Positions 1,265 to 28,987 of a DNA stretch of 32,000 bases are shown piece after piece. The position numbers and the translations under genes were made by a program. Within the stretch, counting starts at the first letter, position 1, and each line of letters begins with the position of its first letter. A model generated the notes under the pieces. It was not told the DNA's origin. It did no database searches and was given only the letters and a program-made list of their open reading frames with translations. Source of the DNA: Dickeya dadantii NCPPB 898 (lineage in GTDB: Bacteria; Pseudomonadota; Gammaproteobacteria; Enterobacterales; Enterobacteriaceae); NCBI RefSeq assembly GCF_000406145.1, contig NZ_CM001976.1, forward strand, positions 3,935,372 to 3,967,371, given 5' to 3'.

Positions 1265-1267
1265 ACC

Positions 1268-5805: not shown

Positions 5806-5830
5806 TCCGTCGCTGCAACGCGCCCGGCAT

Positions 5831-5900
5831 GGCGAGATGAGAGGAACGGCGAGATAAGGGGAACGGAGAAATGAGGAATAACCGCGACATGAGGAGTATG
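5831..5900. repeat. Tandem 17-18-bp repeat x4 in the leader of the 275-aa gene
   Basis: Units: ggcgagatgagaggaac (5831-5847), ggcgagataaggggaac (5848-5864), ggagaaatgaggaataac (5865-5882), cgcgacatgaggagtatg (5883-5900). Each unit carries a GGA/SD-like core. The last unit supplies the gaggag SD for GTG 5904. Confidence 0.8.
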
Positions 5901-5903
5901 TGA

Positions 5904-6731
5904 GTGGCAAAACGAAATCGCGGCACCTTGAAAAACTATTTCCGTCAGGGCGCCATGCCGTCCGCCGAACATTTTTCCGACCTGATCGATTCGTCGGTCA
6001 ACAAAATCGAGGAAGGGTTCGATAAAACGCCGGAACAGGGGCTGAAGATCGCCGCGCTCGATACCCACGCCAGACTGATGACGTTTTACCGCGACAGCGA
6101 CCCGACCCGGCCGCTGTGGTCGGTCAGCCTGCAACCGGACAGCGACCTGCTGCGGGTCAACCGCCACGCCGGCGACGGGAACGGCACCGTCGCCGACGCC
6201 GAACCTTTGCTGACGTTCACCCCCGACGGCCGGGCGGGCATCAACACCACTACGCCGCGCCACGCGCTGGATGTCAACGGGGTGATCGGCGCACAGGGGC
6301 GCGCCGGCGCGCAATGGGCGGACCGCCTGCCCGCCGACGGTGAATGGCACGACCTCACGCCGAAACTGGAAGGGTGCCAGGCCTTTGAGGTGGTGGCGGG
6401 CGTCGGCATCCGCCACTCCGGGCGCTACGCACTGATCCACGCCATCGCGCTGAACACCTGCGCGCCGAGCGGTTTCTTCTTCAATTTTTTCAACCGCAAA
6501 AACCGCATCGGCACCCGCCACGCCTATTACCATTCGCGCGCCGACAAGCTGACGCTGCGCTGGCTGCGCGACGACACGCCAGCCGGCGGCCACGACGGCA
6601 TTCGCCCCTACCGGTTGCAGATCCGTACCCACACCAGCTACGGCGACGGCATCGTGATTCGCTATCACCTCACCCGGCTGTGGCACGACGCCTACATGCA
6701 CGACTGCCTGCTGCCGGCAGGCGAGGAGTGA
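5904..6731 (+). CDS. Putative tail-fibre-like / peripheral baseplate protein (275 aa)
   Basis: GTG 5904 has gaggag 7 nt upstream. The N-terminus LKNYFRQGAMPSAEHFSDLIDS resembles the conserved N-terminal attachment motif (F.tG..Pt...F..LIDS) that I recall from phage/CIS fibre-like proteins. GRAGINTTTPRHALDVNGVIGAQG resembles the vGIGT..P...L.V.G motif of such fibres. The gene is embedded between the two wedge genes. The functional call is from motif memory only. Confidence 0.45.
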   Translation: MAKRNRGTLKNYFRQGAMPSAEHFSDLIDSSVNKIEEGFDKTPEQGLKIAALDTHARLMTFYRDSDPTRPLWSVSLQPDSDLLRVNRHAGDGNGTVADAEPLLTFTPDGRAGINTTTPRHALDVNGVIGAQGRAGAQWADRLPADGEWHDLTPKLEGCQAFEVVAGVGIRHSGRYALIHAIALNTCAPSGFFFNFFNRKNRIGTRHAYYHSRADKLTLRWLRDDTPAGGHDGIRPYRLQIRTHTSYGDGIVIRYHLTRLWHDAYMHDCLLPAGEE

Positions 6732-6733
6732 GC

Positions 6734-9256
6734 ATGACGTCGCCGTCGTTTATTCCACGACAAACGCCGCTTGATGACCCTGACAGCGTCGCCAACCTGC
6801 TGCGCGCGGGGCTGGCGCAGGTTCAGCAACTCAGCGGCAACCGCTGGACCGACTACAACCTGCACGATCCCGGCGTCACCCTGCTGGAGCTGCTGTGTTT
6901 CGCCCTCACCGACCTGATTTACCGCAGCGATTTCGAGGTCGCGGATTACCTGACGCAGCCGGACGGCCGCCTCGACTTCGCCGCGCAGGGGCTGATGCTG
7001 CCGGAACAGATTTTCCCGCCCCGCCCCTGCACCCGACAGGATTATCAGCAGACGCTGCTGGACGCGATGGACGAGGTGGAACAGGCGTGGGTCACGCCGG
7101 ACGGTCAGGGGCGCTACCACATCGACCTGCTGCTGACCGAGGCGGCGCGCCAGCGTTGCGACCACCACCCGACGCTGCGCGACGAGATTGTCGAGGCGGC
7201 GGCGCATCTTTACCACCGCGCCCGCAATCTGGGCGAAGACCTTGCCGGGGTGCGCATCATCGACAGCCACGGGCTGCGGCTGTACGCCGACATCGAGCTG
7301 CAATATCACGATAACGCCGACGAAGTGGCGGCCGACATCTACTTTCAGGCCGAACAGTGGATCCGGGGCGACGAGAGCGACAATCGCCCCGGCAACTATT
7401 ACACCGACAACTATTATACCGACAACGATACCGATAACCGCGGCGCGCCGGGCGACGAGCGGGTTGCCGCCGCCCGACCGCTATCGGCGCTCTACACCCG
7501 GTTGATCAACATCGACGGCGTCGGCCACATCCGGCAGTTACGGCTGATCCCACAGTCCTGTCGGGACGACAATCCCGATCATGCGCCGGACCACTTCAGC
7601 CCCGGCGACTGGATTCTGCTGCCGAAAAAGCACGACGATATCGACCTCAATCTGACCCATCAGGGCCACCCGCTGCCGGTTGATTTCAGCGCCATGAGCA
7701 TCCGGCTGGTGCGGCGTCAGGCGCAAAACGGCACGCTGCGCGAACACATCCGCCGCCAGACCGCCACCCTGATCCCGCCGCCGCACGGTAGCTGGCGCGC
7801 GCTGGCGGATTACCGGTCGATTCAGTCGCTTTTCCCCGGCGTCTACCGGCTGGACGCACCGCGCGTCCCGGCAGCGCTGAACCGGCAGGAACAGCGACAA
7901 ATACAGCAATTTCGCGGCTATCTGCTGCTGTTCGAGCAACTGATGGCTAACTTCTGCGCCAACCTGGCCAACCTGCGCGAGCTGTTTTCGCCGTCCACCG
8001 ACACCGAACGCAGTTACGTCTTCAACCTGCTGGATGATGAACAGTTCCGCGGGGTGGATCTGCTGTATCCCGACGACGCGGCGGCGCGTTTTCATCACCT
8101 GCTGGCCGACGTCGACCACTACCCGGAGCGCAAAGGGCGGCTGCTCGACTATCTGCTGGCGTTATACGGTGAAACGCTGGACGCCCGGCTTTGGCGTCAG
8201 CCGGGCGACGACAGCGCGCAGGGCCGCCGGCAGCTTGAGTACCCGCGCCGGTTTATCCAGGCCATCGACCGCCTGACCCGCGATCGCGGCGCCGGCTTCA
8301 ACACCCGCCGGCCGATGACCGAACGGGAAAACCGGGGCGGGTTCGCCGACCGGGTAGCGCTACTGCTCGGGATGGACGACGCCGACGCCTGGCCTTATAG
8401 CCGGACGCTGGCCCGGCAGGGGTGGCAGTTGCTGGCCGATGACGCCTTCCTGCACTGCGCAGCGGGGCAATCGCATCTGCAATGGCTGGATCAGCCGGCT
8501 CTCGACAGTTTGCTGGATGTGCCGCTGAGCGACGCGCCGCCGGGCGGCGTCGACGTGGCGACGGCGCACGATCTACTGGCGCTGCGCCTGCGGCCATTGC
8601 CGGTCGCCCTGCTGCAACGCGGCGTGATGCTGGAACACTACCGCATTCTGCCGCCCGGCGCCGACGGCTGCTATCAGGCGCTGTTTCGGCTACCGCCGGC
8701 GCCGGGGGCGCAAAACGGGTTATGGCTGCATCTGGGCGCCAGCCGCCAGCCGGCGCAACTGGTGCGCGTCATCAATCAGCTGCGCCGTGAGCTTATCCGG
8801 CTGAATCAGTGCTGCGAAGGGGTGTACGTGGTGGAGCACCTGCTGTTGCGCCCGGCGCTCGGCGGTGATGACGCCCTCCCCGACGGCGACCCGTTTCCCG
8901 GCCAGCTCAGCGTGATCCTGCCCGGTTACACCGCGCGCGGCGGCAACCCGGTGTTCCGGGCGCAGGCCGACGCGCTGATCGCCCGGCAGTGCCCGGCCCA
9001 TCTGCTGCCGCGCTGTCACTGGCTCGATATTCACGCCACAAACGAGTTTGAAACCGCCTGGCTGGCGTGGCTCGACGCCAGACGGGACTCCGCCGGCCAA
9101 CCGTCGTGCGACGACGCCGCCGCTCGGCTGACGGCGTTTTTGCAATCGTTGCACGCGCATTCCCCTTTTCCTCACACAGCCTTTCCTTACCCCCGCAATC
9201 CTCAACCACCCTTTCCTCAACCACCCTTTCCTCAACAACAAGGACAGGACGCATGA
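6734..9256 (+). CDS. Second baseplate wedge protein (Afp12/gp7-like or Afp11 N-terminal-like), 840 aa
   Basis: ATG 6734 lies 2 nt after the upstream stop, with gaggag at 6723-6728. The N-terminal WTDYNLHDPGVTLLELLCFALTDLIYR is the helical-core motif found at the N-terminus of CIS baseplate wedge proteins. It contains in-frame 15-bp repeats (NYYTD x2-3 at 7394-7438; PQPPF x2 at 9200-9229). Confidence 0.7.
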   Translation: MTSPSFIPRQTPLDDPDSVANLLRAGLAQVQQLSGNRWTDYNLHDPGVTLLELLCFALTDLIYRSDFEVADYLTQPDGRLDFAAQGLMLPEQIFPPRPCTRQDYQQTLLDAMDEVEQAWVTPDGQGRYHIDLLLTEAARQRCDHHPTLRDEIVEAAAHLYHRARNLGEDLAGVRIIDSHGLRLYADIELQYHDNADEVAADIYFQAEQWIRGDESDNRPGNYYTDNYYTDNDTDNRGAPGDERVAAARPLSALYTRLINIDGVGHIRQLRLIPQSCRDDNPDHAPDHFSPGDWILLPKKHDDIDLNLTHQGHPLPVDFSAMSIRLVRRQAQNGTLREHIRRQTATLIPPPHGSWRALADYRSIQSLFPGVYRLDAPRVPAALNRQEQRQIQQFRGYLLLFEQLMANFCANLANLRELFSPSTDTERSYVFNLLDDEQFRGVDLLYPDDAAARFHHLLADVDHYPERKGRLLDYLLALYGETLDARLWRQPGDDSAQGRRQLEYPRRFIQAIDRLTRDRGAGFNTRRPMTERENRGGFADRVALLLGMDDADAWPYSRTLARQGWQLLADDAFLHCAAGQSHLQWLDQPALDSLLDVPLSDAPPGGVDVATAHDLLALRLRPLPVALLQRGVMLEHYRILPPGADGCYQALFRLPPAPGAQNGLWLHLGASRQPAQLVRVINQLRRELIRLNQCCEGVYVVEHLLLRPALGGDDALPDGDPFPGQLSVILPGYTARGGNPVFRAQADALIARQCPAHLLPRCHWLDIHATNEFETAWLAWLDARRDSAGQPSCDDAAARLTAFLQSLHAHSPFPHTAFPYPRNPQPPFPQPPFPQQQGQDA

Positions 9257-12200
9257 CGCAGCCACACCGGATTCACACCGCCAGCCTGACGCTCGACTTT
9301 CGCCATTCGTCCGAAGCGGAACGGTTCGAGCGCGACGCCCCACGCTTTGTGCAGCAGCAGTTGTTGCCGTTGATTGACACGCTGTTCGATCGGTTTTCGC
9401 CGCCCCATCAGCTGTGGGTGATCGACCACCTGACGTTCGATCTGGGCGCGCTGCCCGCGTCGGATCTGGAATCGGCGCTGCTGGCGGCGCTACAACAGCA
9501 ACTGACGGATGCGCTGCGCGCGCGGCAACCGTCCGACGCGACCCAGCCGCAGAAAGACCACGACGGCGACGCCGCCGAAATACAGGTGCTGGACGGCCCG
9601 GCGGCGCAATGGCGTCAATTGCAGTTTTTCCTGCAACACGGCGTGATGCCCTGGCATTATTCCAACCGCCAGGGCTGGCGACAGGCAGACAGCCACCGCC
9701 ACTGGCTGGCCGACGCCGTGCGCCGGCACTACGCCGAAGTAAACCGGCTGCTGAACGCCAGCGCCCGCCCGGCCAGCCCGATCGCCCGGTTGGTTTCTCA
9801 ACTACCGGCGACCGCGTTAAACGGCTGGCTGGAACAACTGACGCCCGCCCATCAGGACATCGCGCTGCGTTGTCTGGCCGCACAGCCGGAACCGGATGCG
9901 ATGCCCGCCGCGCTACGGGCGCGGCTGCATCGCTACTGGCACCAGCGCATCCATCAGGCGCTGCGCCAGCGCCGCCTGCGACAGGAGTTGCTGCCGATCT
10001 GGGCCACGCTGCTCGGCGCCCAGCGCGCACGATTTCTGCTGGCGCTTTACGCCTGCGGGCAACAGCCCGAGGTGGTGCGCGGCATGGCGCAGGCGGTGGA
10101 TGACGACGCCTTCGACGATCTGCTGACGCTGTTGGCACCGCAGGCGCAACCGTTCATCCAACAGGTAATCAGACATCCGGCGTGGTTCCGCCATCCCGAA
10201 CCTACCGTCGCCACGGACCAGAGCGCCCCGCTGGATCTGCTGCTGCGTGAATTCACCCTGCATTATCTGCTGGTGCAGCGCGGCAGCCAGTTCAACAAGC
10301 GGCGCTACATGGCCGGGCTGGTCGGCCGCATGGCGGCGCACCACAACATCGAGCGGACCGACGTGCTGCAAACGCTGTACCTGCAACTGGCGGCGTGGCC
10401 GGGCGACCAGGCGCTGAAACAGCCGTTGCTGTCGCTGCTGACCACGCTGTGGGGAGAAATGGCGCCGCTCGCCCGCGCGCTGCCCCATCTGCCGGACATG
10501 ACGCCGGGCGCTCAGCCGGTGCGACACCGGCCGACTACCGGCGACGCGGTTAGACATCGGGAACCGGTCGCGGCAGAAACCACCGACCACAGGCTCCGGC
10601 AACAGTGGGCAGAGGCGCTGCAACAGGCTGATGACGCGGCGCTGAATCGGGTGTGGCGCCAGTGCTCGCCCGCCATGCTGCTGACGTTACGCCCGCTGTT
10701 GATGCGCTGCGGCCAGCAGAGTCAGGTACGCCAGCGCTGGGTGGTGCGTTTTTCCACGGCGACGCAGTATCGCCTGCTGACCCTGCTGGAACCGGCGGAC
10801 GCGCCGTTCATCCGCGACCTGATGGACGACGTGCGCGCCAGCCAGCCGACTATCGCCGCCCGTTCGGCCAACGCCCCCGGCGAATCGTTGTTGACGCACA
10901 GCCTGTGGAGCCTCACGTTCAGCTATCTGCTGGCGGAACGCGGCAGCGAATTCAACCGACAAAGCTATCTGGACGCGCTGCTGCGGCAACTGGCGGCGCA
11001 TCATAACCTGTCGCGCCAGGCGCTGATCGACGCCTTGCTGCACCATCTGCACAGCGCTGCGGCCGCTACCGCGGTGCGCCGGGCGCTGCTGACGATGCTC
11101 ACCCGGCTGCGCGAAAGCGAGCCTCCCGCACCGCCGCCGCAACCGGCACCAGCACCAGCACCAGCACCAAAACCCCCAGCGTCATGCCACATTGACGCGG
11201 ATCTCCCTGTGCCGGCGCACCCGTTGCTTGACGCCGCCTGTTATCAGTACCTGTACGACGTACTGGCCCTCGGCGACCCGACGCGCCGCTTTGAGCCGCC
11301 CGCTGAGGCGCAAACCGCCTGGCGCGCCGCGTCATCGTATGCCGGTAATGACCTACAGCGCTGCGTGCAGCGGTTACTGACTCACCACCCGTTGCTGCTC
11401 CAGCGCTGGCTGGCGGCATCAACGCACCACCCCGCCGGTTGGCTGCGGCTGTGCGCCGCCCTGCGCCCGTCGCAGGCCGCCCAGTTGCTCGCCCAGTTGG
11501 TCGCGCTGCGTCAGCCAGCGAGCCACCTGCGTAGCCTGACGAGCACGCTCGACAACGTCACCCGCCGCCTGATCGTGGCACAGCGGCAGGCGTTTTACGG
11601 GCAGATGATCGACGCGCTGGCCGCCAACCGCACGCCGGACTGGCTGGCGATACGCGATGCGGTCAGCCAGCTCGCCCCGTCGTCTGACGTGGTCGCGCCT
11701 CAGCCGGTCAACGCCATAACGGCCGATGCTTCGGTGCGACCGGCGATGGACGACGACAGCGCGTTGGCGTTGTTGAACCGGCTCACACGCCACGCTTCAG
11801 CGACGATAGCCGACGACGACATTGCCGCGCTCTCCGCCGCACTGGCGCGCCTGCTGCCCACGCAGCCGGAGGCGGTTCGCCGTTTTCTGCTGCCCGCCCT
11901 GCGATCGGCGGACACGGCCGAGCGGCTGGCGGACGCGCTATCCGACACCCTGCATACGGCCTTACTGCTGCTGTTGTGCCGTGCCGACTTTCTGGCGCTG
12001 CACCCATATGGCCGTTTTATCGCCAACCTCTGCCATCGCCACCCGGCCTACCACGGCGCGGCGCAGGTGCTGGAGAGCCAGCTGTGGCGCACGCTGTACC
12101 ACCATCTGTTCGTTGCGGGTTCACCGCCGGATATCGCCGCCTTTATCATCGATTATCTGGACAGACTGGCTACCAATGAGCCACTACGCAGCCATCAGCC

Positions 12201-13161
12201 GTCGCCGGCGGCGTTTTACCGTTTTCTGCTGCAACAGGCGCAGGCCGAGCGGTTACCCATGACCCACGTGCTGACCGAACGCCTGCAACGGTTGATCACC
12301 GCCGCCGGCCTGCATCAGGAGCCGCCGGCGATTGTCGCCGTGGCGAATGCCGGGCAAGCGCCTGAACCCGCCATCGTCGCCACGCCGCCGGTTGAACCGT
12401 CAAACGTCGCCTATGCGCCGCGGCTAGCGGCGGCGCCGGAGATGGCAGTACCGGGCATTGCAGTACCGGACATTGCAGTACAGGACATTGCAGCACAGGA
12501 CATTGCAGCACCAGATAGTGCAGCATCGGATAGCGCAGTGCCGGATATTGCGATGCCGAATAATGCAGCGTCGAATAGTGCTGTGTCAGACATGGCGGTG
12601 CCGGACACCGCGGTTCCGGCGGTTATCGACTGGCGGGGCGACGAGACGTTGAACACCGACGAACCGGTGCCGATCGCCAATGCCGGGCTGGTGCTGGTCG
12701 CCCCCTATCTCCCTCGCCTGCTGACGCGGCTGGCGCTGGTGCAGGACGGCGCATTCCCGCAGCCGGACGCCCGCTATCAGGCCATCCACCGCCTGCAATA
12801 TCTGGTCGATCAGGGACAAAACTGCGCCGAATACCACCTGGCGCTGAACAAACTGCTGTGCGGCCTGCCGCTCAACGCGCCGATTCCGTTAACGCCGCCG
12901 CCTGACGCCGCCGCCCGCGACACGCTGGACGCATTGCTGGCCGCCATCCTTCAGCACTGGAATGCGCTAGGCCACACTTCGGTTGACGGCCTGCGCCAGA
13001 CCTTTCTGCAACGCGAAGGCACCCTGTGGCGGCAGGCGGACAGTTGGAAACTGGAGGTGGCTCCCGGCCCGTTCGACATGCTGCTCGACCGGCTGCCGTG
13101 GGGGTATTCGACCATCAAATACCCCTGGATGGATCGGCCGCTGCACGTGGTCTGGCGTTGA
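9253..13161 (+). CDS. Contractile injection system tape-measure (Afp14-like, CIS_TMP family) protein, 1302 aa
   Basis: ATG 9253 overlaps the upstream stop (ATGA). The N-terminus HRIHTASLTLDF...LWVIDHLTFDLGALP and the C-terminus ANAGLVLVAPYLPRLLTRL...LLDRLPWGYSTIKYPWMDRPLHVVW match what I recall as the conserved ends of CIS tape-measure proteins. There is an internal duplicated module (LLTLL.P...PFI ... YLL..RGS.FN...Y...L...AAHHN) at about nt 10110-10460 and 10770-11120. The 9067 start in the ORF track only adds an Arg/Ser-rich off-gene extension. Confidence 0.7.
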   Translation: MTQPHRIHTASLTLDFRHSSEAERFERDAPRFVQQQLLPLIDTLFDRFSPPHQLWVIDHLTFDLGALPASDLESALLAALQQQLTDALRARQPSDATQPQKDHDGDAAEIQVLDGPAAQWRQLQFFLQHGVMPWHYSNRQGWRQADSHRHWLADAVRRHYAEVNRLLNASARPASPIARLVSQLPATALNGWLEQLTPAHQDIALRCLAAQPEPDAMPAALRARLHRYWHQRIHQALRQRRLRQELLPIWATLLGAQRARFLLALYACGQQPEVVRGMAQAVDDDAFDDLLTLLAPQAQPFIQQVIRHPAWFRHPEPTVATDQSAPLDLLLREFTLHYLLVQRGSQFNKRRYMAGLVGRMAAHHNIERTDVLQTLYLQLAAWPGDQALKQPLLSLLTTLWGEMAPLARALPHLPDMTPGAQPVRHRPTTGDAVRHREPVAAETTDHRLRQQWAEALQQADDAALNRVWRQCSPAMLLTLRPLLMRCGQQSQVRQRWVVRFSTATQYRLLTLLEPADAPFIRDLMDDVRASQPTIAARSANAPGESLLTHSLWSLTFSYLLAERGSEFNRQSYLDALLRQLAAHHNLSRQALIDALLHHLHSAAAATAVRRALLTMLTRLRESEPPAPPPQPAPAPAPAPKPPASCHIDADLPVPAHPLLDAACYQYLYDVLALGDPTRRFEPPAEAQTAWRAASSYAGNDLQRCVQRLLTHHPLLLQRWLAASTHHPAGWLRLCAALRPSQAAQLLAQLVALRQPASHLRSLTSTLDNVTRRLIVAQRQAFYGQMIDALAANRTPDWLAIRDAVSQLAPSSDVVAPQPVNAITADASVRPAMDDDSALALLNRLTRHASATIADDDIAALSAALARLLPTQPEAVRRFLLPALRSADTAERLADALSDTLHTALLLLLCRADFLALHPYGRFIANLCHRHPAYHGAAQVLESQLWRTLYHHLFVAGSPPDIAAFIIDYLDRLATNEPLRSHQPSPAAFYRFLLQQAQAERLPMTHVLTERLQRLITAAGLHQEPPAIVAVANAGQAPEPAIVATPPVEPSNVAYAPRLAAAPEMAVPGIAVPDIAVQDIAAQDIAAPDSAASDSAVPDIAMPNNAASNSAVSDMAVPDTAVPAVIDWRGDETLNTDEPVPIANAGLVLVAPYLPRLLTRLALVQDGAFPQPDARYQAIHRLQYLVDQGQNCAEYHLALNKLLCGLPLNAPIPLTPPPDAAARDTLDALLAAILQHWNALGHTSVDGLRQTFLQREGTLWRQADSWKLEVAPGPFDMLLDRLPWGYSTIKYPWMDRPLHVVWR
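12430..12624 (+). repeat. In-frame 15-bp (5-codon) tandem repeat, ~13 units, inside the tape-measure gene
   Basis: Units gcagtaccgggcatt / gcagtaccggacatt / gcagtacaggacatt / gcagcacaggacatt / gcagcaccagatagt and so on encode AAPEM-AVPGI-AVPDI-AVQDI-AAQDI-AAPDS-AASDS-AVPDI-AMPNN-AASNS-AVSDM-AVPDT-AVPAV. Confidence 0.9.
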
Positions 13162-13182: not shown

Positions 13183-13265
13183 CCGTATTACCGACAGCCA
13201 TGCATTACCGACAGCCATGCATCACCGACGACCATGCATTACCGACAACATGCATCACCGACCAA
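13183..13265. repeat. Tandem 16-17-bp repeat x5 (CATGCAT[T/C]ACCGAC...) between the tape-measure gene and the 822-aa gene
   Basis: Units: ccgtattaccgacagc (13183-13198), catgcattaccgacagc (13199-13215), catgcatcaccgacgac (13216-13232), catgcattaccgacaa (13233-13248), catgcatcaccgaccaa (13249-13265), followed by a partial catac. There are no spacers, so this is not a CRISPR array. Confidence 0.85.
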
Positions 13266-13287: not shown

Positions 13288-15756
13288 ATGAGGATTCACC
13301 GCTTCACCGGGCGCAACGCGACACTGACGCCGCTGCTGGCCTTGTTGCTTCCATTGGCATTGCTGCTCCCGCCGGCTGCCTATACCGCACCGCCGGAATC
13401 GGCGTCCGCGCCGTCCGTCGCGCCCGACGCCCCGACTTACGCCCAATGCCTGCAAGCGCTGGAGCGGATGGACAGCCGACGCTTTACCCGCATCACGCAG
13501 GATAAACTGGCGATCATCTACCACGACAATTCGGCGTATCAGGCGGATTATCACCAACCGGGCGACTACCTTGCCGACGGGCTGTTCGGCCCCAAGACGC
13601 GCAAATGGCTGGCGACGTTTTGCGGTGAATTCGACATCACGCCGCCGCCCAACCGCAACACCTTCGCCGAAGTGCTGCTGGTGTCGCTAGCCAAGGTGTC
13701 GGAACTTGACCAGCTCTACCCTTACTGGCGTAACCGCATGGGCGCGCCGGAACTGTTGCAGTGGCCGGCGCAGAAAACCATCGACTTCCTCACGACGCAG
13801 ATGGACGGCGTCATCCCCCCGCCGCCGGAGACAACGTCGCCGCAGTATTACGCCCTGACGGAGGACGACCTGCGCAAACTGGCGGAGCGCAACGCCATCC
13901 AGACCCAACTGGACGACCTGATCGGCCACCAGTTCACCAGCCCGGTGGAACTGAACAACGCGGTGCGCCCGTTGATCCGCCAGTTGCACGGCAATGAGGA
14001 GCAGATCCTGCGACAGATTGTGGACGCCGTACCGGCCAGCGACGGTAACCGCAGCCGTCCCCAACCCGCCGCCGCGCGTTCCACGCCGGGGGACAGCACA
14101 CTGGAGGACAACCCGACGGACGACAGGGCGCAGCCCGACGATCAGGCGCGTGCCGATGTCGCCGACGCCCGGCAACACAGCGACGCCGGCACCGCCGCGC
14201 CGGTTACCGTCTATTCGCTGAATCAGAATGCGCTGGAGCTGGCTTATCTGGATCTCAATCTGGTGTCGGTAGACAAAGACGCACTGGCGCGGCTGGCAAC
14301 GTTGAAAGACACCCCGTTCGCCGACCGCTACCAACTGGCGGTGGCGATGAAAATGGCCGGGCTTGACCGCCTCAGCCACCAGAGCCGGCAACGCATTCTG
14401 GAGATCGCCCACAAAGACGGCGCGCCTGCGGCAACTACCCCGCCGATGGTCTGGCGCGCCCCCGCCGACTGCGGCTGTGAAGACAGCACCCCGAACGTTA
14501 ACGGCGCCGACGCCACCTTCTACGGTTTTTATCCTTACTGGCAGCCGCTGACCGACGGGCAAACCCTCAACTTTCGTCAACTGGACCGCATCGGCTATTT
14601 CTCCGCCGCGGTCTTGCCGGGCGCGCGCGACCCGCAACTGGTGCTGCCGCCCAACTGGCGCAAAACCCGCCCTTATAACGATTTTATCCGGCTGGCGCAC
14701 CGCTACCGCACCCATGTCGATCTGGTGGTGTCCACGCCGAGAAAACTGCCGTCGCCGGCGCTGGTCAGCCTGTTCACCTCGTCACTGATCGCCCGTCTCG
14801 GCGCCAGCATTCAAACCCCGCTTGACGACGACTGGATCAACCGCGCCAAACCCTGGCTGACCTTCGGTTTGAGTCCGTCGGATACGATGGCGGACGGCGT
14901 AACGCTGGACTTCGACCTGACCCGGCTCACCACCCGCGCCGGTCAGCAGACGTTTATGCGCTTTGTGCAGGCGCTGCGCAAAACCCTCACGCCCGTCGGC
15001 CAAACGCCCGAGACGCCGCCCCGCTACGCCATCAACCTGATGGTGCCGGTGGAGCCGCTGCTGAAGGGCCAGGGGTTTTATACGCTGGATAACCTGCGGG
15101 AACTGCTACCGTATGTGGATCGGTTTATTCTGCAGCCGGAGCCCCCTGACGGCATGGTCAAACCGCGTCGGGCGCTCGACCAGTTGAGCGATCTGCGCCA
15201 TTTTTTAAGCCAGCAGCCGCAGGCCGCCGTTCCTGAGCTGTATCGCAAGATGGTGCCGATCCTGATTACCGACGCCAACCGCCAGCAGACGACTGATCTG
15301 GCGGAACTGGTGCGCTACAGCAGTTGGAGCTTTCTCAGCGCCGCTTACTGGCCGCTGCCGCTCGACGAAGCCAGCCAGCAGCTCATCAGCCAGACGTACT
15401 ACCCCACCGCCGACCTGCCGGCGCCGCTGGCGCAGATAGCCGCGGCAGTCAATGCGGTTATCGACATCATCTGCCCCAACCGCTGGGTGCTGCGCCTGAT
15501 CCTGTTTATCACCTTCTGGGGGATTGTCGTCACCGGCGTCGCCAGCCTGTGGCTGTTCCCGGTGCGCAAGGTCACCGACTCGCTGTGGTTCGCCGGTTTC
15601 GTGGTGCTGTTCGCCGCGGCGCTAATGCTGGCGCTGGTAGCCGACCCGTACTGGCAACAATACCAGACGCTGATCCTGCTACTGTTCGCCGCCGTGGTGG
15701 TGACCATCGCCGTACTGCAACGCATCAGGAAAAACCGGCGGGAGCGGAATCCGTAA
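13288..15756 (+). CDS. Exported, C-terminally membrane-anchored protein with a peptidoglycan-binding-like motif and a degenerate GH18 (chitinase-like) region; 822 aa
   Basis: ATG 13288 gives MRIHRFTGRNATLTPLLALLLPLALLLPPAAYTAPP, a signal-peptide-like start. ADGLFGPKTRKWLATFCGEF (nt 13573-13632) resembles the PG_binding_1 core (DG.fG..T...l..FQ). A Pro/Asp/Ala-rich linker follows. FYGFYPYW (14518-14541), LDRIGYFSA, HVDLVVS, ADGVTLDFDL (14890-14919), YAINLMVP and VDRFILQ follow the GH18 TIM-barrel strand pattern, but the DxxDxDxE motif reads DGVTLDFD, so the catalytic Glu is absent. Three hydrophobic helices lie at nt ~15480-15720, followed by a basic tail RIRKNRRERNP. Domain calls are by eye. 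Confidence 0.5.
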   Translation: MRIHRFTGRNATLTPLLALLLPLALLLPPAAYTAPPESASAPSVAPDAPTYAQCLQALERMDSRRFTRITQDKLAIIYHDNSAYQADYHQPGDYLADGLFGPKTRKWLATFCGEFDITPPPNRNTFAEVLLVSLAKVSELDQLYPYWRNRMGAPELLQWPAQKTIDFLTTQMDGVIPPPPETTSPQYYALTEDDLRKLAERNAIQTQLDDLIGHQFTSPVELNNAVRPLIRQLHGNEEQILRQIVDAVPASDGNRSRPQPAAARSTPGDSTLEDNPTDDRAQPDDQARADVADARQHSDAGTAAPVTVYSLNQNALELAYLDLNLVSVDKDALARLATLKDTPFADRYQLAVAMKMAGLDRLSHQSRQRILEIAHKDGAPAATTPPMVWRAPADCGCEDSTPNVNGADATFYGFYPYWQPLTDGQTLNFRQLDRIGYFSAAVLPGARDPQLVLPPNWRKTRPYNDFIRLAHRYRTHVDLVVSTPRKLPSPALVSLFTSSLIARLGASIQTPLDDDWINRAKPWLTFGLSPSDTMADGVTLDFDLTRLTTRAGQQTFMRFVQALRKTLTPVGQTPETPPRYAINLMVPVEPLLKGQGFYTLDNLRELLPYVDRFILQPEPPDGMVKPRRALDQLSDLRHFLSQQPQAAVPELYRKMVPILITDANRQQTTDLAELVRYSSWSFLSAAYWPLPLDEASQQLISQTYYPTADLPAPLAQIAAAVNAVIDIICPNRWVLRLILFITFWGIVVTGVASLWLFPVRKVTDSLWFAGFVVLFAAALMLALVADPYWQQYQTLILLLFAAVVVTIAVLQRIRKNRRERNP

Positions 15757-15803
15757 CCACAGGCGGCAGTCTGAATCGTTCCTGCTATTGGGTTGGGCCG
15801 CTA

Positions 15804-16862
15804 TCAGCCCGCTGCTGAAACGGCCGGCGACATAATCCCCCGCACCGAACCCCTGACCTTCAGATGCCCGGCCAGTTCGATACGCTGGGCGACGCCGAGC
15901 GACTGGGTCGGCAGCAGTTGCTGGGTGAGCAGGTGCAACGCCGCGCGGGCCATCTCTTCAAACGGCAGATGCACGGTGGTGAGCGCCAGCGGCAGCATAT
16001 CCAGCGGCAGGATATCGTCCATCCCCATCACCGACATGTCATCCGGCACCCGCAGGCCGTGCTGGTTGAGCGCCTCCGCCACGCCGATGGCCTGATTGTC
16101 GGCGGCGCAGAAGATAGCGGTGACGCCAAGCCGGTCCGGGTGTTGCGCCAGCCAGCCGAGCAGCGCGTCGCGGGCGGTCAGCGGCTGGAAATCCGGCAGC
16201 GACAGAATTAACCGTTCATCCAGCGGGATACCCGCTTCAACCAGCGCGTCGCGGTAGCCGCGTTCGCGCTCACGGATGGTCTGGCGGGAATGCCAGGTCA
16301 AATGCAGAATACGCCGATGCCCCTGCACAATCAGGTAACGCACCGCGGCGGCGGCCGAGTAGTGGTTGGCGGGCATCACGGTGTTGAGCCGCATGGTCGG
16401 GTCTTCACCGTTGATCAACACCGCCGGCACGCCGCTTTCCGCCACCGCGTTGAGCAACGTGGGGTGGTCGTCGTTGACGATCAGAATGCCGCTCTCCCGC
16501 CCGCCGCGCAGCGCCTGCAACAGTTGCTGCTCGTTGATGCTGTCCGGCTCGCCGACAAACGGACTGAGCTGGATGTTGCGCTGCTGGCACAGGGTTTTCA
16601 GCCGGTTGATCAGCGTCAGCGACACCAGATTGAGGTCGCTTTCCAGCATCAGGTTGCGCGGCGTCGCCAGCATAATGTGGCGCAGCGGCTCCGGGTTGTC
16701 CGCCGTTTTGCTCGCCTTGTGCAGCGGGTACCCCTGCTCGGTGGCGATCGCCATAATCTGCTGGCGGACTTTGGCGCTGATGGGCGCGGTGCCGTTCAGC
16801 ACCCGGGATACCGTGCTGATCGACACGCCCGCGCGGTCGGCAATATCTTTGAGCGTCGCCAT
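15804..16862 (-). CDS. LacI/GalR-family transcriptional repressor
   Basis: MATLKDIADRAGVSISTVSRVLNG is the LacI-type HTH, followed by a periplasmic-binding-protein-like sugar-binding fold pattern. The ATG directly abuts the upstream permease stop (16863), so it is the last gene of the operon. Confidence 0.9.
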   Translation of the reverse strand: MATLKDIADRAGVSISTVSRVLNGTAPISAKVRQQIMAIATEQGYPLHKASKTADNPEPLRHIMLATPRNLMLESDLNLVSLTLINRLKTLCQQRNIQLSPFVGEPDSINEQQLLQALRGGRESGILIVNDDHPTLLNAVAESGVPAVLINGEDPTMRLNTVMPANHYSAAAAVRYLIVQGHRRILHLTWHSRQTIRERERGYRDALVEAGIPLDERLILSLPDFQPLTARDALLGWLAQHPDRLGVTAIFCAADNQAIGVAEALNQHGLRVPDDMSVMGMDDILPLDMLPLALTTVHLPFEEMARAALHLLTQQLLPTQSLGVAQRIELAGHLKVRGSVRGIMSPAVSAAG

Positions 16863-17915
16863 TTATTTCATTCCCGTGTTGGCAATGCCGGTGGTGATGT
16901 ATTTTTGCAGGAACACGAACACCGCCGTCACCGGCAGCAGCGACAGCATGGTCATCGCCAGAATATAGTGCCACTGCACCGAGAACTGCCCCTGAAACGC
17001 ATTCAGGCCGATTTGCAGCGTGAAGTTGTCCTGACTGGACAGCACGATCAGCGGCCACAGGAAGTCGTTCCAGCGCCAGATAACCGAGAAGATCGCCAGC
17101 ACCGCCAGCGCCGGCGCGGTGAGCGGCAGGATGATTTTCCAGTAGATGCGAAACTCGCTGGCGGCGTCGATGCGTGCGGCTTCGATCAGCTCATCGGGGA
17201 TGGTCAGCATGTACTGGCGCAGCAGGAACACCCCGGTGGGCGTGGCGATGGTGGGAATAATCACCCCCCACAGGTTGTCGCCCATGCGCAGACCAATCAC
17301 CACCAGAAAGGTCGGCACCATCACTACCGACAGCGGGATCATCATGGTGGACAGAAATAGCGTCAGCACCGTACCGCGCCCTCGAAACTCATACTTCGCC
17401 AGCGCGAACGCCGCCATCGAACTGAGCAACAGCGTCAGCAACGTCGCCATCACCGTCACGAACACAGTGTTTTTCAGGTAGGTGGCGAAGTGGAATTTCG
17501 ACATCGGCGTGGTGTAGTTGTCGGTTTCCAGATGCAGGGTTTTCTGCGGCGTCAGGTTCTGCACCGGCACCCGCATCACCTCCTGCGGCGCTTTAGGGTC
17601 CACCATCTGCGCCAGCAGGCCGATGCGCCGCACCATCGCCAGCGTTTTGCTGCTGCCGTCGTCCTGCTTCGCCTGCCACAGCTCCAGCGGTTTCGGGTAG
17701 TCGGGCAGCGTGACGGTGCTGGCGGCCTCCGGCAGAAAACTGGGCGGAAAGCGGTTGATCTCCGCCGGGGTTTTTAGCGACGACATCGCCGCCCACATCA
17801 CCGGAATCAGCACCAGCAGCGTGCCGACCACCAGCCACACCCAGCTCAGGATGTCGGTGACGTGAATCCGCCCCGGATAACGGGTGCGGGTAAGAAATGT
17901 GATTATCTTCATCAT
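16863..17915 (-). CDS. Carbohydrate ABC transporter permease (MalG/binding-protein-dependent family), 350 aa with a long first periplasmic loop
   Basis: It has multiple TM segments and the EAA-loop region DELIEAARIDAASEFRIYWKIILPL. Confidence 0.9.
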   Translation of the reverse strand: MMKIITFLTRTRYPGRIHVTDILSWVWLVVGTLLVLIPVMWAAMSSLKTPAEINRFPPSFLPEAASTVTLPDYPKPLELWQAKQDDGSSKTLAMVRRIGLLAQMVDPKAPQEVMRVPVQNLTPQKTLHLETDNYTTPMSKFHFATYLKNTVFVTVMATLLTLLLSSMAAFALAKYEFRGRGTVLTLFLSTMMIPLSVVMVPTFLVVIGLRMGDNLWGVIIPTIATPTGVFLLRQYMLTIPDELIEAARIDAASEFRIYWKIILPLTAPALAVLAIFSVIWRWNDFLWPLIVLSSQDNFTLQIGLNAFQGQFSVQWHYILAMTMLSLLPVTAVFVFLQKYITTGIANTGMK

Positions 17916-17927
17916 GCCGGCTCCCGG

Positions 17928-18929
17928 TTATTTTTTGCCTTCCAGACGGCGGGTAAGCAGGAACTGCAACGCCGTCAGGACCATCAGCACCAACCCCATC
18001 AGCACCGACGCCGCCGACGCCAGCCCGTACAGCGACGCGTTGGAGGAAAACGCGGTCTGATAGATGTACTGCACAATAAAGTTGTTGGCGGTGCCCGGCC
18101 CGCCGCCGTTGGTCAGCACCCAGGCTTCATCGAAAATCTGCACGCTGTTGATGGTCAGCAGGATCACCACCACCAGAATGTTGGGCGCCAGCAACGGCAG
18201 CGTCAGGCTATAGAAACCACGCCAGCGCGAGGTGCCGTCCACCGCCGCCGCTTCGTAGATATCACGCGGGATCGCCTGCAACCCGGCCAGCAGAATCAGG
18301 GTATAAAAACCGACGTGAAACCACACCGACACGAACACCACCCAGAAGCGCGCCAGCGATGGCTCCAGCAAAAACGTAATCGGCTGGCCGCCCAGCGACG
18401 ACAGCAGCAGATTCAGCAAGCCGTTGCGGTTGAGAAACCACTGCCACACCAGCCCGACCACCACCGGCGACAGCAGCACCGGGTAGAAGAAGATGGCGCG
18501 GAAGAAACCGCGGGCGATGATCTTGCGGTTGAGGATCAGCGCGGTGACCAGCGCCACGCCGAGCGTGCACGTCACATTAAAAAAGGTAAATGAAACAGTG
18601 TTGTAGACGCCGGTCCAGAACAGATCCTGCTCGCAGGTGGCGGGCACCGTGTACTGCTCGCAACTCAACAGAGTAGTGAAGTTCTGCAACCCGACGTACG
18701 GCCGGTCCCACAGCAAAATATTGGTGCCGCCGGTGAAGGCGTAGCACACCGCCAGCAGGATCGGAATAAACACGAACACGGCGAACAGCAGCATGTTCGG
18801 CGCGATGAAAAACCACGGCATCACCCGGCGGCCGCCGAATTTTTGTAGCAGATTGACCGATTTTTCCACCGGCGTCACCAGCGTATCCACCAACGACGCG
18901 CCGGGCTGAATCAACGATTTTCGGTTCAT
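17928..18929 (-). CDS. Carbohydrate ABC transporter permease (MalF/UgpA-like), 333 aa
   Basis: Start chosen at ATG 18929 (MNRKSLIQPG), preceded by aggaga. The track start at 19043 would overlap the ATPase gene. EAA-loop region: DIYEAAAVDGTSRWRGFYSLTLPLL. Confidence 0.9.
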   Translation of the reverse strand: MNRKSLIQPGASLVDTLVTPVEKSVNLLQKFGGRRVMPWFFIAPNMLLFAVFVFIPILLAVCYAFTGGTNILLWDRPYVGLQNFTTLLSCEQYTVPATCEQDLFWTGVYNTVSFTFFNVTCTLGVALVTALILNRKIIARGFFRAIFFYPVLLSPVVVGLVWQWFLNRNGLLNLLLSSLGGQPITFLLEPSLARFWVVFVSVWFHVGFYTLILLAGLQAIPRDIYEAAAVDGTSRWRGFYSLTLPLLAPNILVVVILLTINSVQIFDEAWVLTNGGGPGTANNFIVQYIYQTAFSSNASLYGLASAASVLMGLVLMVLTALQFLLTRRLEGKK

Positions 18930-18957
18930 GCCTGTCTCCTGATTATGGCTGTCGCAA

Positions 18958-20058
18958 TCAGACATCCTGTTCCGCCAGACGCGGCAGCGCCTGACCGCTG
19001 TCGGCATCAAACAGGTGGCAATAGTCTGGCGGGAAGCGGACAAACACCAGCTCGCCGGTGCGGAATTCGTGGTGCCCCGGCAGGTGCACGATCAGCTCGT
19101 CGTCGATGCCGGCGCAGCGGCCGTAGATAAAGGTTTCGTGCCCCATCATTTCGCAACGGTCAATGCACAGCGACACACCGTCGTCACGCTCGCTCACCAG
19201 TTGGCAGTGCGACGGGCGGATACCCAGCTCCACCGTTTTTCCCTCTTCGCCGCGAAACGGCAGCCGCAGCAGATTGCCGGACGGACAGCGGACTTCCACC
19301 CCGTCGTCCGACGCGCTGCTAATGGTGGCGTGGAACATATTCATGCGCGGCGAACCGATAAAACCGGCCACAAACTTGTTTTTCGGCCGGTTGAACAGCT
19401 CCAGCGGCGTGCCCACCTGTTCGATGCGCCCGCCGTTGAGCACTACGATGCGCTGGGCCATGGTCATCGCCTCCACCTGATCGTGGGTGACGTAAATCAT
19501 GGTGGTGCGCAGCTTCTGGTGCAGCCGGGTCAGCTCGCCGCGGGTCTGTACCCGCAGTTTGGCGTCAAGGTTGGACAGCGGTTCGTCAAACAGGAACAGG
19601 TCCGGGTCGCGCACGATGGCGCGGCCGATGGCGACGCGCTGTTGCTGCCCGCCAGACAGCGCCCGCGGCTTGCGATCGAGATACGGTTCCAGCCCCAGCA
19701 TGCGCGCGGCCTCCCCGATGCGCCGTTCAATTTCGTCTTTGGGGAAATGCAGGTTTTCCAGCCCGAACGCCAGATTCTTGCGCACCGACAGGTGCGGATA
19801 GAGTGCGTAGGACTGGAACACCATGGCGATTTTGCGCTCCGCCGGGCCAAGATCGTTAACCTTGCGATCGCCGATCCACAGCTCGCCGTCGGTGATCGGT
19901 TCCAGACCGGCGATCATCCGCAACAACGTGGATTTACCGCAGCCGGACGGCCCGACGAACACCATGAACTCCCCGTCGCGGATGATCAGATCCACGCCTT
20001 TGATAATCTGTATCGACCCATAGCTTTTATGGACGTTTTTCAGTTCCAGACTTGCCAT
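18958..20058 (-). CDS. Sugar ABC transporter ATP-binding protein (MalK/UgpC/MsmK-like), 366 aa
   Basis: Start at ATG 20058 ([14 protein letters not shown]), preceded by gaggaa. Walker [10 protein letters not shown], signature [14 protein letters not shown], Walker [13 protein letters not shown], and a C-terminal MalK-type regulatory domain. Confidence 0.9.
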
Positions 20059-20070
20059 CACCGTTTCCTC

Positions 20071-20107
20071 AAACCCGTTTCTGTTTTCAAACCCGTTTCT
20101 GTTTTTC
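20071..20107. repeat. 18/19-bp tandem direct repeat filling the GH88-ATPase intercistronic gap
   Basis: aaacccgtttctgttttc (20071-20088) and aaacccgtttctgtttttc (20089-20107). The GH gene stop (20106-20108) lies inside the second unit. Confidence 0.85.
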
Positions 20108-21242
20108 AAACAGAATGCCGCTGCGCCAGCAGCATCAGCATGACCAGCGCCTGCCCGTACGGCACGGCGACATTGGGGATATCGTGATAAAACTGCAGGT
20201 CGTGGCCCATCGCGGTGCCGTCCGACACCCCTTGCACCACGCCCTGTTCATCAATCTGCGCCATCACCGCCGCCAGCCCTTTGTCCAGCGCCGCCTGCGG
20301 GAAATCCGCCAGCATGCCGAGCTGGCGGGCGGTGAGAATGCCGGCGATGAAACCGGCGCTGGCGGAGGTTTCCAGCGGCGAATCCGGGTCGTTGAGCAGG
20401 GTGTGCCACAGCCCGGAATCATGCTGACAGGCCGCCAGCGCGCGAGTCTGCTGGGTGAGGATCGCCTCCAGCGTGCGGCGCACCGGCACCGAGATCGGCG
20501 AGTCCGCCAGACAACAGATTTCCGGCAGCACCAGCGTCACCCAGGCGTTGCCGCGCCCCCAGAACGCCCCGGCGTAATGGTGGCGACCAAGGAACGTCCA
20601 GCCGTGATACCACAGCCCGCTGGCGACGTCCGCCAGATAGCGGGCGTGGGTCAGCAACTGGTATTCGGCTTCCTCCAGCAGTTCCCGGCGCTTGAGCACC
20701 CCGGCGCTGACCACCAGAAACAACCCGGCCATAAACAGCGTGTCGTCCCACAGTTGCCCGGTGTTGGGGCGCTCCTTGACCGTGTGCTGGAAGCCGCCGT
20801 CTTCGGTTTTCGGCAGCGAATGCAGCAGCCAGTCCGCCCACTCTTCCACCGCCGCCAGCCAGTGCGGACGCGGGTTATCGCGGCACAGCAGCGCCAGCAC
20901 CAGCATCGGCGCGGTGGAGTTGATTTGCCGCGGCGGCAGCCCGGCCTGCAATTTTTGCTCGTACCACTGTTCCAGCGCCGCCAGCATGGCGTGGTCCTGC
21001 CGCTGTCGCGCCAGTTTCCAGAAGCCGTACAGCCCGACGCCCACTTCCCAGTCCCACTCTTCGAACTGGATGGTCAGCGCCTCGCCGGCCGGCGCGCCGT
21101 CGTTCAGGTCGGTCACGCTGTTGATGGCTTTCAGGCGGCAAAACGCCAGCGCCACCTTGTCCAGCAGCGCATCAATATGCCGGCTGTCGGAGAGTCCGTT
21201 CATGGATTGTTCGGAGAGTCCGTTCATGGATTGTATTGTCAT
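20106..21242 (-). CDS. Glycoside hydrolase family 88/105 (Glyco_hydro_88: unsaturated glucuronyl / rhamnogalacturonyl hydrolase), 378 aa, no signal peptide
   Basis: [31 protein letters not shown] and [15 protein letters not shown] match the conserved blocks of the family. The N-terminus carries a 24-bp tandem duplication ([16 protein letters not shown]). Confidence 0.85.
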
Positions 21243-21243
21243 G

Positions 21244-23724: not shown

Positions 23725-23906
23725 GGCGAATCCTTGTTACCGCACGAGTGAATAAATGAAATATCGAGAATGCATTGCCAAATAAAAAATACTAATGAAT
23801 AAAAAAATACCTGATGGCATTTATTTGCACCGTTATTGTGCGCGTGCTGCCTTTATTTGGCGCAATGCAACTTTTCAGTGCCAGATCCAGAAATCGGCGG
23901 CGATAA

Positions 23907-23921
23907 ATGCAAAATTTGCAT
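23907..23921. promoter_or_regulatory. Perfect 15-bp palindrome ATGCAAAATTTGCAT; candidate LacI-family operator
   Basis: It lies in the AT-rich divergent intergenic region, ~185 bp upstream of the 826-aa gene start. A near-identical palindrome lies at 24101-24114. Extra TTTGCA/TGCAA half-sites occur at ~23823, 23863, 23931 and 23952. Confidence 0.4.
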
Positions 23922-23986
23922 AATCCGGCAATTTGCACTTAACATCGTATTTTTGCATTATAGAGTAAATTATCGCGTGAACAATA

Positions 23987-24002
23987 TGCGATTCTTATCA
24001 CA
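23987..24002. promoter_or_regulatory. CRP-like site TGCGA-TTCTTA-TCACA
   Basis: 9/10 match to TGTGA-N6-TCACA. It is located in the divergent catabolic promoter region just upstream of a TTGACT/TATATT promoter-like pair. Confidence 0.3.
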
Positions 24003-24010
24003 AAAAGACG

Positions 24011-24038
24011 TTGACTCAGCCATGAGTCGAAATATATT
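24011..24038 (+). promoter_or_regulatory. Candidate sigma70 promoter for the solute-binding-protein unit (TTGACT-16 nt-TATATT)
   Basis: TTGACT at 24011-24016 and TATATT at 24033-24038. This is a sequence match only. Confidence 0.25.
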
Positions 24039-24100
24039 TAATATGCTTCACAAAAAAGAACGCGATTTTTGTTCATGATGAGTTGCTGAATGGCTTATTC

Positions 24101-24114
24101 ATGCAAATTTGCAT
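24101..24114. promoter_or_regulatory. Perfect 14-bp palindrome ATGCAAATTTGCAT; candidate LacI-family operator
   Basis: It lies ~100 bp upstream of the SBP start codon and has the same half-sites as 23907-21. Confidence 0.4.
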
Positions 24115-24213
24115 TCATGCATCACAGGCTGTCGAATATACCCGAAGTAATAAAGCCAATACACCTGCAACCTGACCTATGACGGGTCTGCTATTTATAA
24201 TGGGTGGGAGAGT

Positions 24214-25527: not shown

Positions 25528-25545
25528 CGGAGGAGTCAGTAACGG

Positions 25546-26996: not shown

Positions 26997-27006
26997 TATT
27001 GATACC

Positions 27007-27762: not shown

Positions 27763-27769
27763 CCTTCGG

Positions 27770-28973: not shown

Positions 28974-28987
28974 TTAAGGGGGATACT

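Follow-up and report, generated by a model that had tools for sequence, protein, structure and literature searches.

In a 32,000-nucleotide stretch of the Dickeya dadantii NCPPB 898 genome (contig NZ_CM001976.1, positions 3,935,372 to 3,967,371; called the window below), the last gene of a contractile injection system (CIS) block encodes a protein of 822 amino acids (positions 13288-15756 of the window including the stop codon, + strand). The gene belongs to an already known family, which includes a protein with a solved structure, SalCis20, and a tested Dickeya orthologue, EAT3. On balance, and with moderate confidence, we take its product to be an envelope-docking, peptidoglycan-engaging inner-membrane subunit, probably dimeric, of a cell-associated, SalCIS-type and clade-Ib-like CIS. 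This reading is based on full-length homology to SalCis20, a reproduced membrane topology, strict synteny, a fold of glycoside hydrolase family 18 (GH18), a PG_binding_1-like module and a conserved C-terminal proline. The Sec signal, the periplasmic location of the N-terminal bulk and the three-helix hold in the inner membrane were observed here or follow from close homology. An earlier note on this gene, made from the nucleotide sequence without database searches, had described much of this anatomy. The anatomy was confirmed, and its functional interpretation was partly supported.

A phmmer search of the PDB with the window protein gave a single strong match, chain B of 9r9a (864 aa; E=9.9e-136), covering residues 43-815 of the query and 46-856 of the chain at ~33% identity. 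The family profile matched the same SalCis20 chain with E=2e-232. PDB entry 9R9A is SalCis20 from the CIS of Salmonella enterica subsp. salamae (Ejaz et al., Nat Commun 2026, PMC13266070; preprint June 2025). In that work, cryo-EM at 2.73 A resolved a homodimer with three transmembrane (TM) helices in the map, the Sec signal, with predicted cleavage after residue 42, was required for membrane localisation, and the periplasmic domain, in which an acidic pocket was reported, resembled SleL (4s3j). SalCIS particles adjoined the inner membrane in minicell tomograms and no release was detected; contacts of SalCis20 to SalCis13 and SalCis11 were modelled, not demonstrated (PMC13266070). Inner-membrane localisation and homodimer formation have been shown for SalCis20 only and, by homology, would be expected of the window protein.

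The second relative, EAT3, is the product of Dd1591_0669 in Dickeya zeae (now chrysanthemi) Ech1591 (Geller et al., Nat Commun 2021, PMC8213781). Its predicted function was given as 'Chitinase?', and it was toxic to Escherichia coli under T7 induction and to the yeast Saccharomyces cerevisiae (PMC8213781). In the gene table of that study, Dd1591_0669 adjoins afp14, afp12, afp13 (828 bp, or 275 aa), afp11 and afp9. Because this neighbour order is exactly that of the window, we regard EAT3 as the positional orthologue of the window gene; D. chrysanthemi homologues are 67-77% identical to the window protein. EAT3 was classed in the 2021 study as a delivered toxin from its toxicity on overexpression, and the accessible parts of the main text make no mention of its signal peptide, TM helices or membrane location. 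The SalCis20 paper cites Geller et al. without linking SalCis20 to EAT3 (PMC13266070). From homology and gene order, we judge SalCis20 and EAT3 to be one family, a connection drawn in the present analysis. The view in the earlier note that the protein is not a known component of extracellular CIS (eCIS) is thus outdated, as EAT3 was tested in 2021 and a SalCis20 structure is available in the PDB.

The signal and topology were called by Kyte-Doolittle hydropathy and charge pattern, which are simple predictors, together with the helices of an AlphaFold2 (AF2) model. The model used an 84-sequence alignment (mean predicted local distance difference test score, pLDDT, 86.6; predicted TM-score, pTM, 0.74) and replaced an 11-sequence model with pLDDT 60. 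As the earlier note had proposed, the N-terminus (residues 1 to ~34; 13288-13389, + strand) is a Sec-type signal peptide by hydropathy. An n-region with 3 K/R is followed by an h-region at residues 13-29, and the whole aligns to the SalCis20 signal. The signal-peptidase site lies around residues 31-34, its exact position being uncertain as a proline comes after the AYTA motif. In three D. chrysanthemi homologues (P0005, P0163 and P0164), the signal region carries a varying count of WKVL(F/L) repeats (…FSWKVLFAWKVLFSWKVLLAWGALLS…). Homologue length ranges from 713 to 819 aa between strains because the number of these repeats and the length of a downstream linker vary. The idea that the 702-aa annotation of EAT3 is missing its signal peptide was not supported, as D. 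chrysanthemi orthologues are just 713-725 aa long owing to a shorter linker.

At the other end of the protein, the hydropathy scan gave three TM helices (~736-756, 767-785 and 796-812; 15493-15723, + strand), in agreement with AF2 helices at 732-755, 766-785 and 793-820 and with conservation in the family. The loop at 757-766 contains R and K, and the loop at 784-795 has no K/R. A short basic tail ending in proline, QRIRKNRRERNP (15724-15753, + strand), follows, with 6 K/R among the last 12 residues. The topology, with a periplasmic N-terminus and a cytoplasmic C-terminus, fits the positive-inside rule, again as read in the earlier note. Two motifs at the periplasmic membrane face, CPNRW (729-733) and DPYW (786-789), are conserved family-wide. 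The C-terminal residue is Pro in 123 of 141 family representatives, mostly after Y, F, L or M plus a basic stretch. As the cytoplasmic parts are limited to a loop of ~10 residues and this basic tail of ~10 residues, the tail would be the obvious candidate for contact with a cytoplasmic machine.

Behind the signal peptide lies a PG_binding_1-like helical module (residues ~50-115; 13435-13632, + strand) with the core ADGLFGPKTRKWLATFCGEF. Its AF2 helices, at 50-59, 67-77, 82-88 and 102-114, have pLDDT values mostly of 87-96. The PG_binding_1-like core claimed in the earlier note held at the level of the family: 17 of 59 members matched PF01471, the best of them (P0078) with 57.4 bits and E=1.7e-15 against a gathering cut-off of 23, and query residues 60-115 were aligned on these matches, in register with a 12-residue insertion. 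The window protein taken alone gave no Pfam match, PF01471 included, in a direct scan, and the 12-residue insertion found in its subgroup explains the missed match. The family profile also had weak matches in the PDB to the PG_binding_1 domains of SleB, SltB3 and an amidase (E 0.03-0.3).

Further on, residues 251-304 (14038-14199, + strand) form a disordered linker (AF2 pLDDT <50) in low-complexity, gapped columns of the alignment, and its length varies among homologues. The linker had been described as acidic and proline-rich. Its acidity was borne out (11 D/E against 6 K/R), but with 5 Pro its proline content is modest, and with 11 Ala it is better called Ala/Asp-rich. Ahead of the next domain, a CGC motif (Cys395 and Cys397; 14470-14478, + strand) is conserved, with Cys at each position in 134 of 139 representatives.

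Residues ~405-700 (14500-15387, + strand) form a GH18-like (beta/alpha)8 barrel in the AF2 model, in line with the SleL-like fold published for SalCis20. Eight strand-helix units lie within residues 411-687, with strands at 411-416, 434-443, 476-482, 537-541, 581-587, 612-616, 655-660 and 685-687, and at the level of fold the GH18 reading of the earlier note was right. In a Foldseek search of the PDB, 49 matches were obtained at E<=1e-3, and all were GH18 chitinases, ENGases/endoglycosidases, chitinase-like lectins or YdhD (best E=9e-6; TM-score up to 0.64), with a sequence identity of 9-15%. SleL belongs to GH18 as well. In the SalCis20 paper, the domain is termed a putative hydrolase, and SleL (4s3j) figures as an N-acetylmuramoyl-L-alanine amidase (PMC13266070), while SleL is reported as an N-acetylglucosaminidase in the title of Lambert and Popham (2008). 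The latter view, with SleL in GH18, suits our fold matches better because all of them are GH18. At the sequence level, profile searches of the PDB with the whole-family and barrel-only alignments found no GH18 protein at a significant E value (YdhD, E=0.55), so the GH18 link rests on fold rather than on sequence. Likewise, PF00704 gave 11.3 bits (E=0.27) on the domain fragment, below the gathering score of 29.6 bits, and 23.7 bits on the best family member.

The GH18 catalytic motif is degenerate. Where canonical enzymes have DxxDxDxE, the window protein has DGVTLDFD (residues 536-543; 14893-14916, + strand), invariant among close homologues. The alignment places Thr539 at the second Asp and Asp543 at the catalytic Glu, which agrees with the reading in the earlier note that no catalytic Glu is present. 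Thr539 is found in 135 of 142 representatives. Across ~150 representatives, position 541 is Y in 63, D in 33, F in 16 and N in 15, and position 543 is D in 85, E in 12, K in 10, N in 9 and P in 6. Other columns are well kept, such as D478 (143/143), G537 (142/142), R434 (139/142), Y412 (136/141), W418 (135/138) and W688 (133/139). Retention of the groove aromatics together with loss of the catalytic residues, as in chitinase-like lectins, favours binding over canonical hydrolysis and suggests that the barrel may be a glycan binder.

The barrel could also be explained by an active SleL-like peptidoglycan glycosidase, anchored in the inner membrane, that opens the sacculus locally for insertion or firing of the CIS. 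A wall-opening role of this kind was proposed for SalCis20 by analogy with MltE in type VI secretion system (T6SS) assembly (PMC13266070). The GH18 fold found with AF2 and Foldseek, the similarity to SleL as a GH18 enzyme cleaving cortex peptidoglycan, and the acidic pocket reported for SalCis20 (PMC13266070) agree with this explanation. So do the invariance of Asp541 and Asp543 in the close subgroup and the Glu found at the acid position in 12 of ~140 representatives. We consider it unlikely, however, in view of the residues themselves: the GH18 signature is broken in both the window protein and SalCis20 (Thr for the Asp at motif position 4 and Asp for the Glu at position 8), one position of the DxE pair is held by Y/F/N and the second by D/K/N/P family-wide, and the strand expected to carry the MxYD tyrosine reads RFILQP. 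In addition, the PF00704 score is far below its cut-off, and none of the family members is reported to be active. The label 'putative hydrolase' for the SalCis20/EAT3 family warrants caution, as the GH18 catalytic residues are not conserved.

Strict synteny ties the gene to its operon. A pattern scan with one genome per species gave 18 loci from Dickeya, Celerinatantimonas, Mangrovibacter, Kluyvera, Symbiopectobacterium, Marinomonas, Vibrio and Erwinia, of which 16 were informative in having enough upstream DNA. In all 16, the order Afp11, Afp13-like, Afp12, tape-measure protein and SalCis20-family gene was kept. When 1.84 billion cluster representatives were searched exhaustively with a profile, 460 relatives were obtained at E<=1e-3, 141 of them at E<=1e-30, with the barrel and the TM region as the conserved core; a profile search of a word-indexed protein database added one further relative only. 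For seven proteins, namely six distant representatives with identities down to ~21-25% and the one from P. polaris, contigs were looked up, and all seven adjoin genes for CIS_TMP, AAA ATPase, eCIS_core or Pvc16_N. By this distribution, the family behaves as a lineage-wide component rather than as variable cargo. No family match was found for the window protein itself in Pfam, NCBIfam, PHROGs or PADLOC, and a viral structure library held no convincing phage counterpart to it.

The earlier note had kept as a fallback that the gene might be an unrelated neighbour abutting the CIS operon. The downstream genes, which form an unrelated sugar-utilisation cluster (LacI, ABC transporter, GH88), would fit such a boundary. 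Synteny refuted it, as every one of the 23 informative related loci (16 genome loci and 7 looked-up proteins) has the gene inside a CIS operon, and the probability left to it is negligible. Co-occurrence with CIS genes had been proposed as a check, and homologues were not found to be common away from CIS genes.

The earlier note had offered three roles: a lysis or release factor, a periplasmic or peptidoglycan tether for a cell-associated CIS, and a secreted or loaded payload. The tether matches the published SalCis20 model (PMC13266070). The other two are less well supported, because no SalCIS release was detected and because the Sec signal and membrane insertion argue against tube loading.

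A payload would correspond to the label EAT3, that is, an effector resembling a chitinase that the particle would inject into fungi, insects or bacteria. The toxicity of the Ech1591 orthologue in E. coli and S. cerevisiae (PMC8213781) could be explained in this way, and the fold is chitinase-like. The gene stands at the operon 3' end, and neither the window nor the published Ech1591 operon table showed a further effector candidate. Nevertheless, a Sec signal and three TM helices would direct the protein to the producer's own inner membrane, as shown for SalCis20, and this is incompatible with loading into the tube in the cytoplasm. Synteny with structural genes over 460 clusters is unlike that of typical lineage-specific cargo, only trace amounts were present in purified SalCIS particles, and the catalytic motif is degenerate. 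We therefore regard a delivered toxin as very improbable.

A lysis or release factor, in which a holin-like three-helix module makes the membrane permeable and the wall is attacked or gripped by the periplasmic part so that particles are freed, seems to us quite unlikely, though less so than a delivered toxin. The N-out/C-in three-helix topology with a basic tail is that of class I holins, and killing of both E. coli and yeast by EAT3 suits membrane damage better than wall hydrolysis. The position at the operon 3' end would also suit a release gene, and no other obvious one was found nearby in the window or in the Ech1591 operon table. On the other side, SalCis20 was overproduced in E. coli and purified from its membranes as a stable dimer, and with the whole SalCIS operon expressed, neither sheath nor tube was detected as released (PMC13266070). 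Moreover, the TM region carries the family-specific motifs of the periplasmic side rather than holin-like features, and the catalytic residues are degenerate.

In the envelope-docking role that we favour, the PG_binding_1-like module and the GH18-shaped barrel would grip the producer's own peptidoglycan by its glycan strands. Since the family has not kept the catalytic Asp/Glu positions, the barrel would probably serve as a binding groove and not as a canonical hydrolase. The cytoplasmic particle would dock on the TM bundle, the cytoplasmic loop and the Pro-ended basic tail by way of the Afp13-like protein and the extended Afp11 baseplate. The protein might thereby mark and hold the place in the envelope at which the CIS rests on the inner membrane, as a single-protein functional analogue of the T6SS membrane anchor combined with a wall-engaging factor.

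A bolder version can be imagined, to which we give little credence. In it, the pseudo-glycosidase barrel reads peptidoglycan strands and the tail docks the baseplate, the Afp13-like protein or an AAA ATPase. The resulting minimal trans-membrane complex would make the CIS a cell-anchored, T6SS-like weapon, evolved independently of TssJLM and shared by hundreds of CIS lineages, and the toxicity of EAT3 would be an overexpression artefact.

Several points weigh against an envelope-docking subunit. No experiment shows peptidoglycan binding, contact with Afp13 or the baseplate, or a need for CIS function, for SalCis20 or its homologues. SalCis20 is nearly absent from purified particles, with a relative abundance of 0.004 (PMC13266070), and the surface that faces the cytoplasm is very small for a protein meant to dock a particle. 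The toxicity of EAT3 in E. coli and yeast (PMC8213781) is not predicted by an anchor, although overexpression of a three-TM protein could explain it. Within the close gammaproteobacterial subgroup, neither Asp541 nor Asp543 varies, so non-canonical catalysis may still take place there.

The tape-measure gene and the SalCis20-like gene are in the same orientation and tightly linked, with gaps of 11-60 nt between them in relatives, so that the SalCis20-like gene is probably co-transcribed with the structural genes. In line with this, a crude scan of the interval between them gave no promoter-like or terminator-like site. The gene model was taken from the list of open reading frames (ORFs), the match to PDB 9r9a_B and the identity to D. 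dadantii 3937, where the protein (WP_033112070 / Dda3937_03073) is 97.4% identical. The open frame spans 13234/13288 to 15756 on the + strand, with candidate ATG codons at 13234 and 13288. We judged 13288 to be the better start because the N-terminus MRIHRF is kept in the aligned homologues of D. undicola and Erwinia sp. AG740 and because GGGAGA lies 12 nt 5' of this ATG. The ATG at 13234 was rejected, as it falls within a strain-specific 17-bp tandem repeat that is absent from D. oryzae. This repeat, ATTACCGACAGCCATGC (4.5 copies; 13187-13262, unstranded; Tandem Repeats Finder score 110; 3 matches against 0.11 expected by chance), occupies the gap between the tape-measure gene and the SalCis20-like gene and generates the spurious ATG. 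The orthologous gap of D. oryzae is ~60 nt long and lacks the repeat, which is possibly a strain-variable element influencing expression. Folding of the 3' end was uninformative.

Upstream of the SalCis20-like gene, the window carries, in order, a VgrG fragment, PAAR, gp25, Baseplate_J, a 275-aa gene, an afp12-like gene and CIS_TMP, all of which precede it in the CIS block. The extended Baseplate_J protein is afp11-like (1373 aa; 1684-5805, + strand), matches PF04865 and is syntenic in related loci. The 275-aa gene (5904-6731, + strand) is Afp13/SalCis13-like, has the size and position of Dd1591_0672 (annotated afp13), and encodes the proposed partner of SalCis20. Its product had no match in Pfam, PHROG or PADLOC, and it is the best conserved protein of the CIS block, with 40-57% identity where the SalCis20-like protein has only 25-36%. 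The afp12-like baseplate gene (6734-9256, + strand), also syntenic, has a weak match to TIGR02243 and the position of Dd1591_0671 (annotated afp12); its start was taken as the first ATG past the afp13-like stop. The tape-measure gene is afp14-like (9253-13161, + strand; PF19268, E=1e-110), its start overlaps the Cis12 stop, and it lay directly 5' of the homologue in all genome loci examined. Within it, a 15-bp tandem repeat of 7.7 copies (12436-12551) encodes five-residue units of the type (A/V)(P/Q)DIA (…AVPDIAVQDIAAQDIAAPDSA…) and could vary tape-measure length between strains.

At the 5' end of the block, a gap of 416 nt separates the VgrG stop from the PAAR start (549-965, the ATG being at 965), compared with 70 nt in Dickeya Ech1591. 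The gap contains a 124-aa ORF (588-962) with no family match and one 16-nt imperfect inverted repeat, and it may be a small insertion. At the other end, the SalCis20-like gene is followed on the opposite strand by a LacI regulator, a sugar ABC transporter and a GH88 enzyme. As these sugar-utilisation genes are unrelated, the CIS block ends with the SalCis20-like gene. GC content is 65.2% in the block (1-13161), 63.9% in the SalCis20-like gene and 61.3% in the downstream genes (15800-32000), a difference consistent with horizontal acquisition of the CIS block. An Rfam scan of the window gave no match.

In 25 of 28 loci, genes for an AAA ATPase (Cis15-like) and eCIS_core (DUF4157) adjoin the homologue; they were not found in the 32-kb window, in D. 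oryzae or in one Mangrovibacter locus. A SalCgo-like gene was not seen beside the SalCis20-like gene in the window either. Neither afp15 nor a DUF4157 gene is listed in the Ech1591 operon table, and EAT3 is entered as 'Absent' for DUF4157 (PMC8213781). All operons of the cluster defined in the SalCIS paper are stated there to encode a SalCgo2 homologue (PMC13266070). In a distant metagenomic CIS operon (loci L022/L023, 13051-21530), the homologue is followed by two eCIS_core genes, a gene for a Scabin-like/pertussis-S1-like ADP-ribosyltransferase and a methyltransferase gene, in what looks like an effector arm 3' of the membrane protein.

How phage-tail-like injection systems exit the cell, or act from within it, is an open question, and the SalCis20/EAT3 family is currently the best lead for a CIS lineage that apparently stays attached to the inner membrane. 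What is gained here is consolidation and a set of testable refinements, not a new kind of system: the 'toxin' EAT3 of 2021 and the 'membrane protein' SalCis20 of 2026 are one family. Besides this unity, the present analysis added the non-conserved catalytic positions, the C-terminal proline, and the lack of an adjacent AAA ATPase and DUF4157 gene in the window and the Ech1591 table. The conserved Pro tail is a concrete mutational target. Dickeya, which is genetically tractable and has no ATPase/DUF4157 arm beside the gene, would be a convenient system for testing the role of the protein.

Compared with known systems, the window protein shares its (beta/alpha)8 barrel with GH18 chitinases, chitinase-like lectins and the peptidoglycan N-acetylglucosaminidases of the SleL/YdhD type. 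GH18-like strand signatures are found at beta1 (YGFYPYW), beta2 (RIGY), beta4 (DGVT) and beta8 (a Trp). Unlike GH18 enzymes, it has no DxxDxDxE and its barrel is fused to a membrane anchor. The C-terminal module resembles class I holins such as lambda S105 in its three TM helices, N-out/C-in topology and basic cytoplasmic C-terminus. Class I holins are ~100 aa long and have no large periplasmic domain. The window protein differs from them in having such a domain and in lacking homology to them, and SalCis20 was tolerated when overproduced. Cargo of eCIS is cytoplasmic, loaded, lineage-variable and often linked to DUF4157, whereas this protein has a Sec signal, TM helices and conserved synteny, with no DUF4157 in the window.

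The proposed job, tying a cytoplasmic contractile machine to the envelope and handling peptidoglycan, would be like that of the T6SS membrane complex (TssJ/L/M) with its recruited lytic transglycosylase MltE. Unlike TssJ/L/M, the window protein is a single polypeptide with tiny cytoplasmic parts and bears no sequence or fold relationship to them. No outer-membrane component is known for it. SalCis20 itself is the closest known counterpart with a structure. There are differences: the AAA ATPase and eCIS_core/DUF4157 genes are missing beside the SalCis20-like gene in the window and in the published Ech1591 operon table, and the linker is acidic and Ala/Asp-rich, not Ser/Thr-rich. The two proteins are alike in their signal peptide, PG_binding-like N-terminus, low-complexity linker, three TM helices and basic tail, in the barrel motif DG[VI]TLD[FI]D, and, as judged from the closely related P. 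polaris locus, in their operon position after the tape-measure gene.

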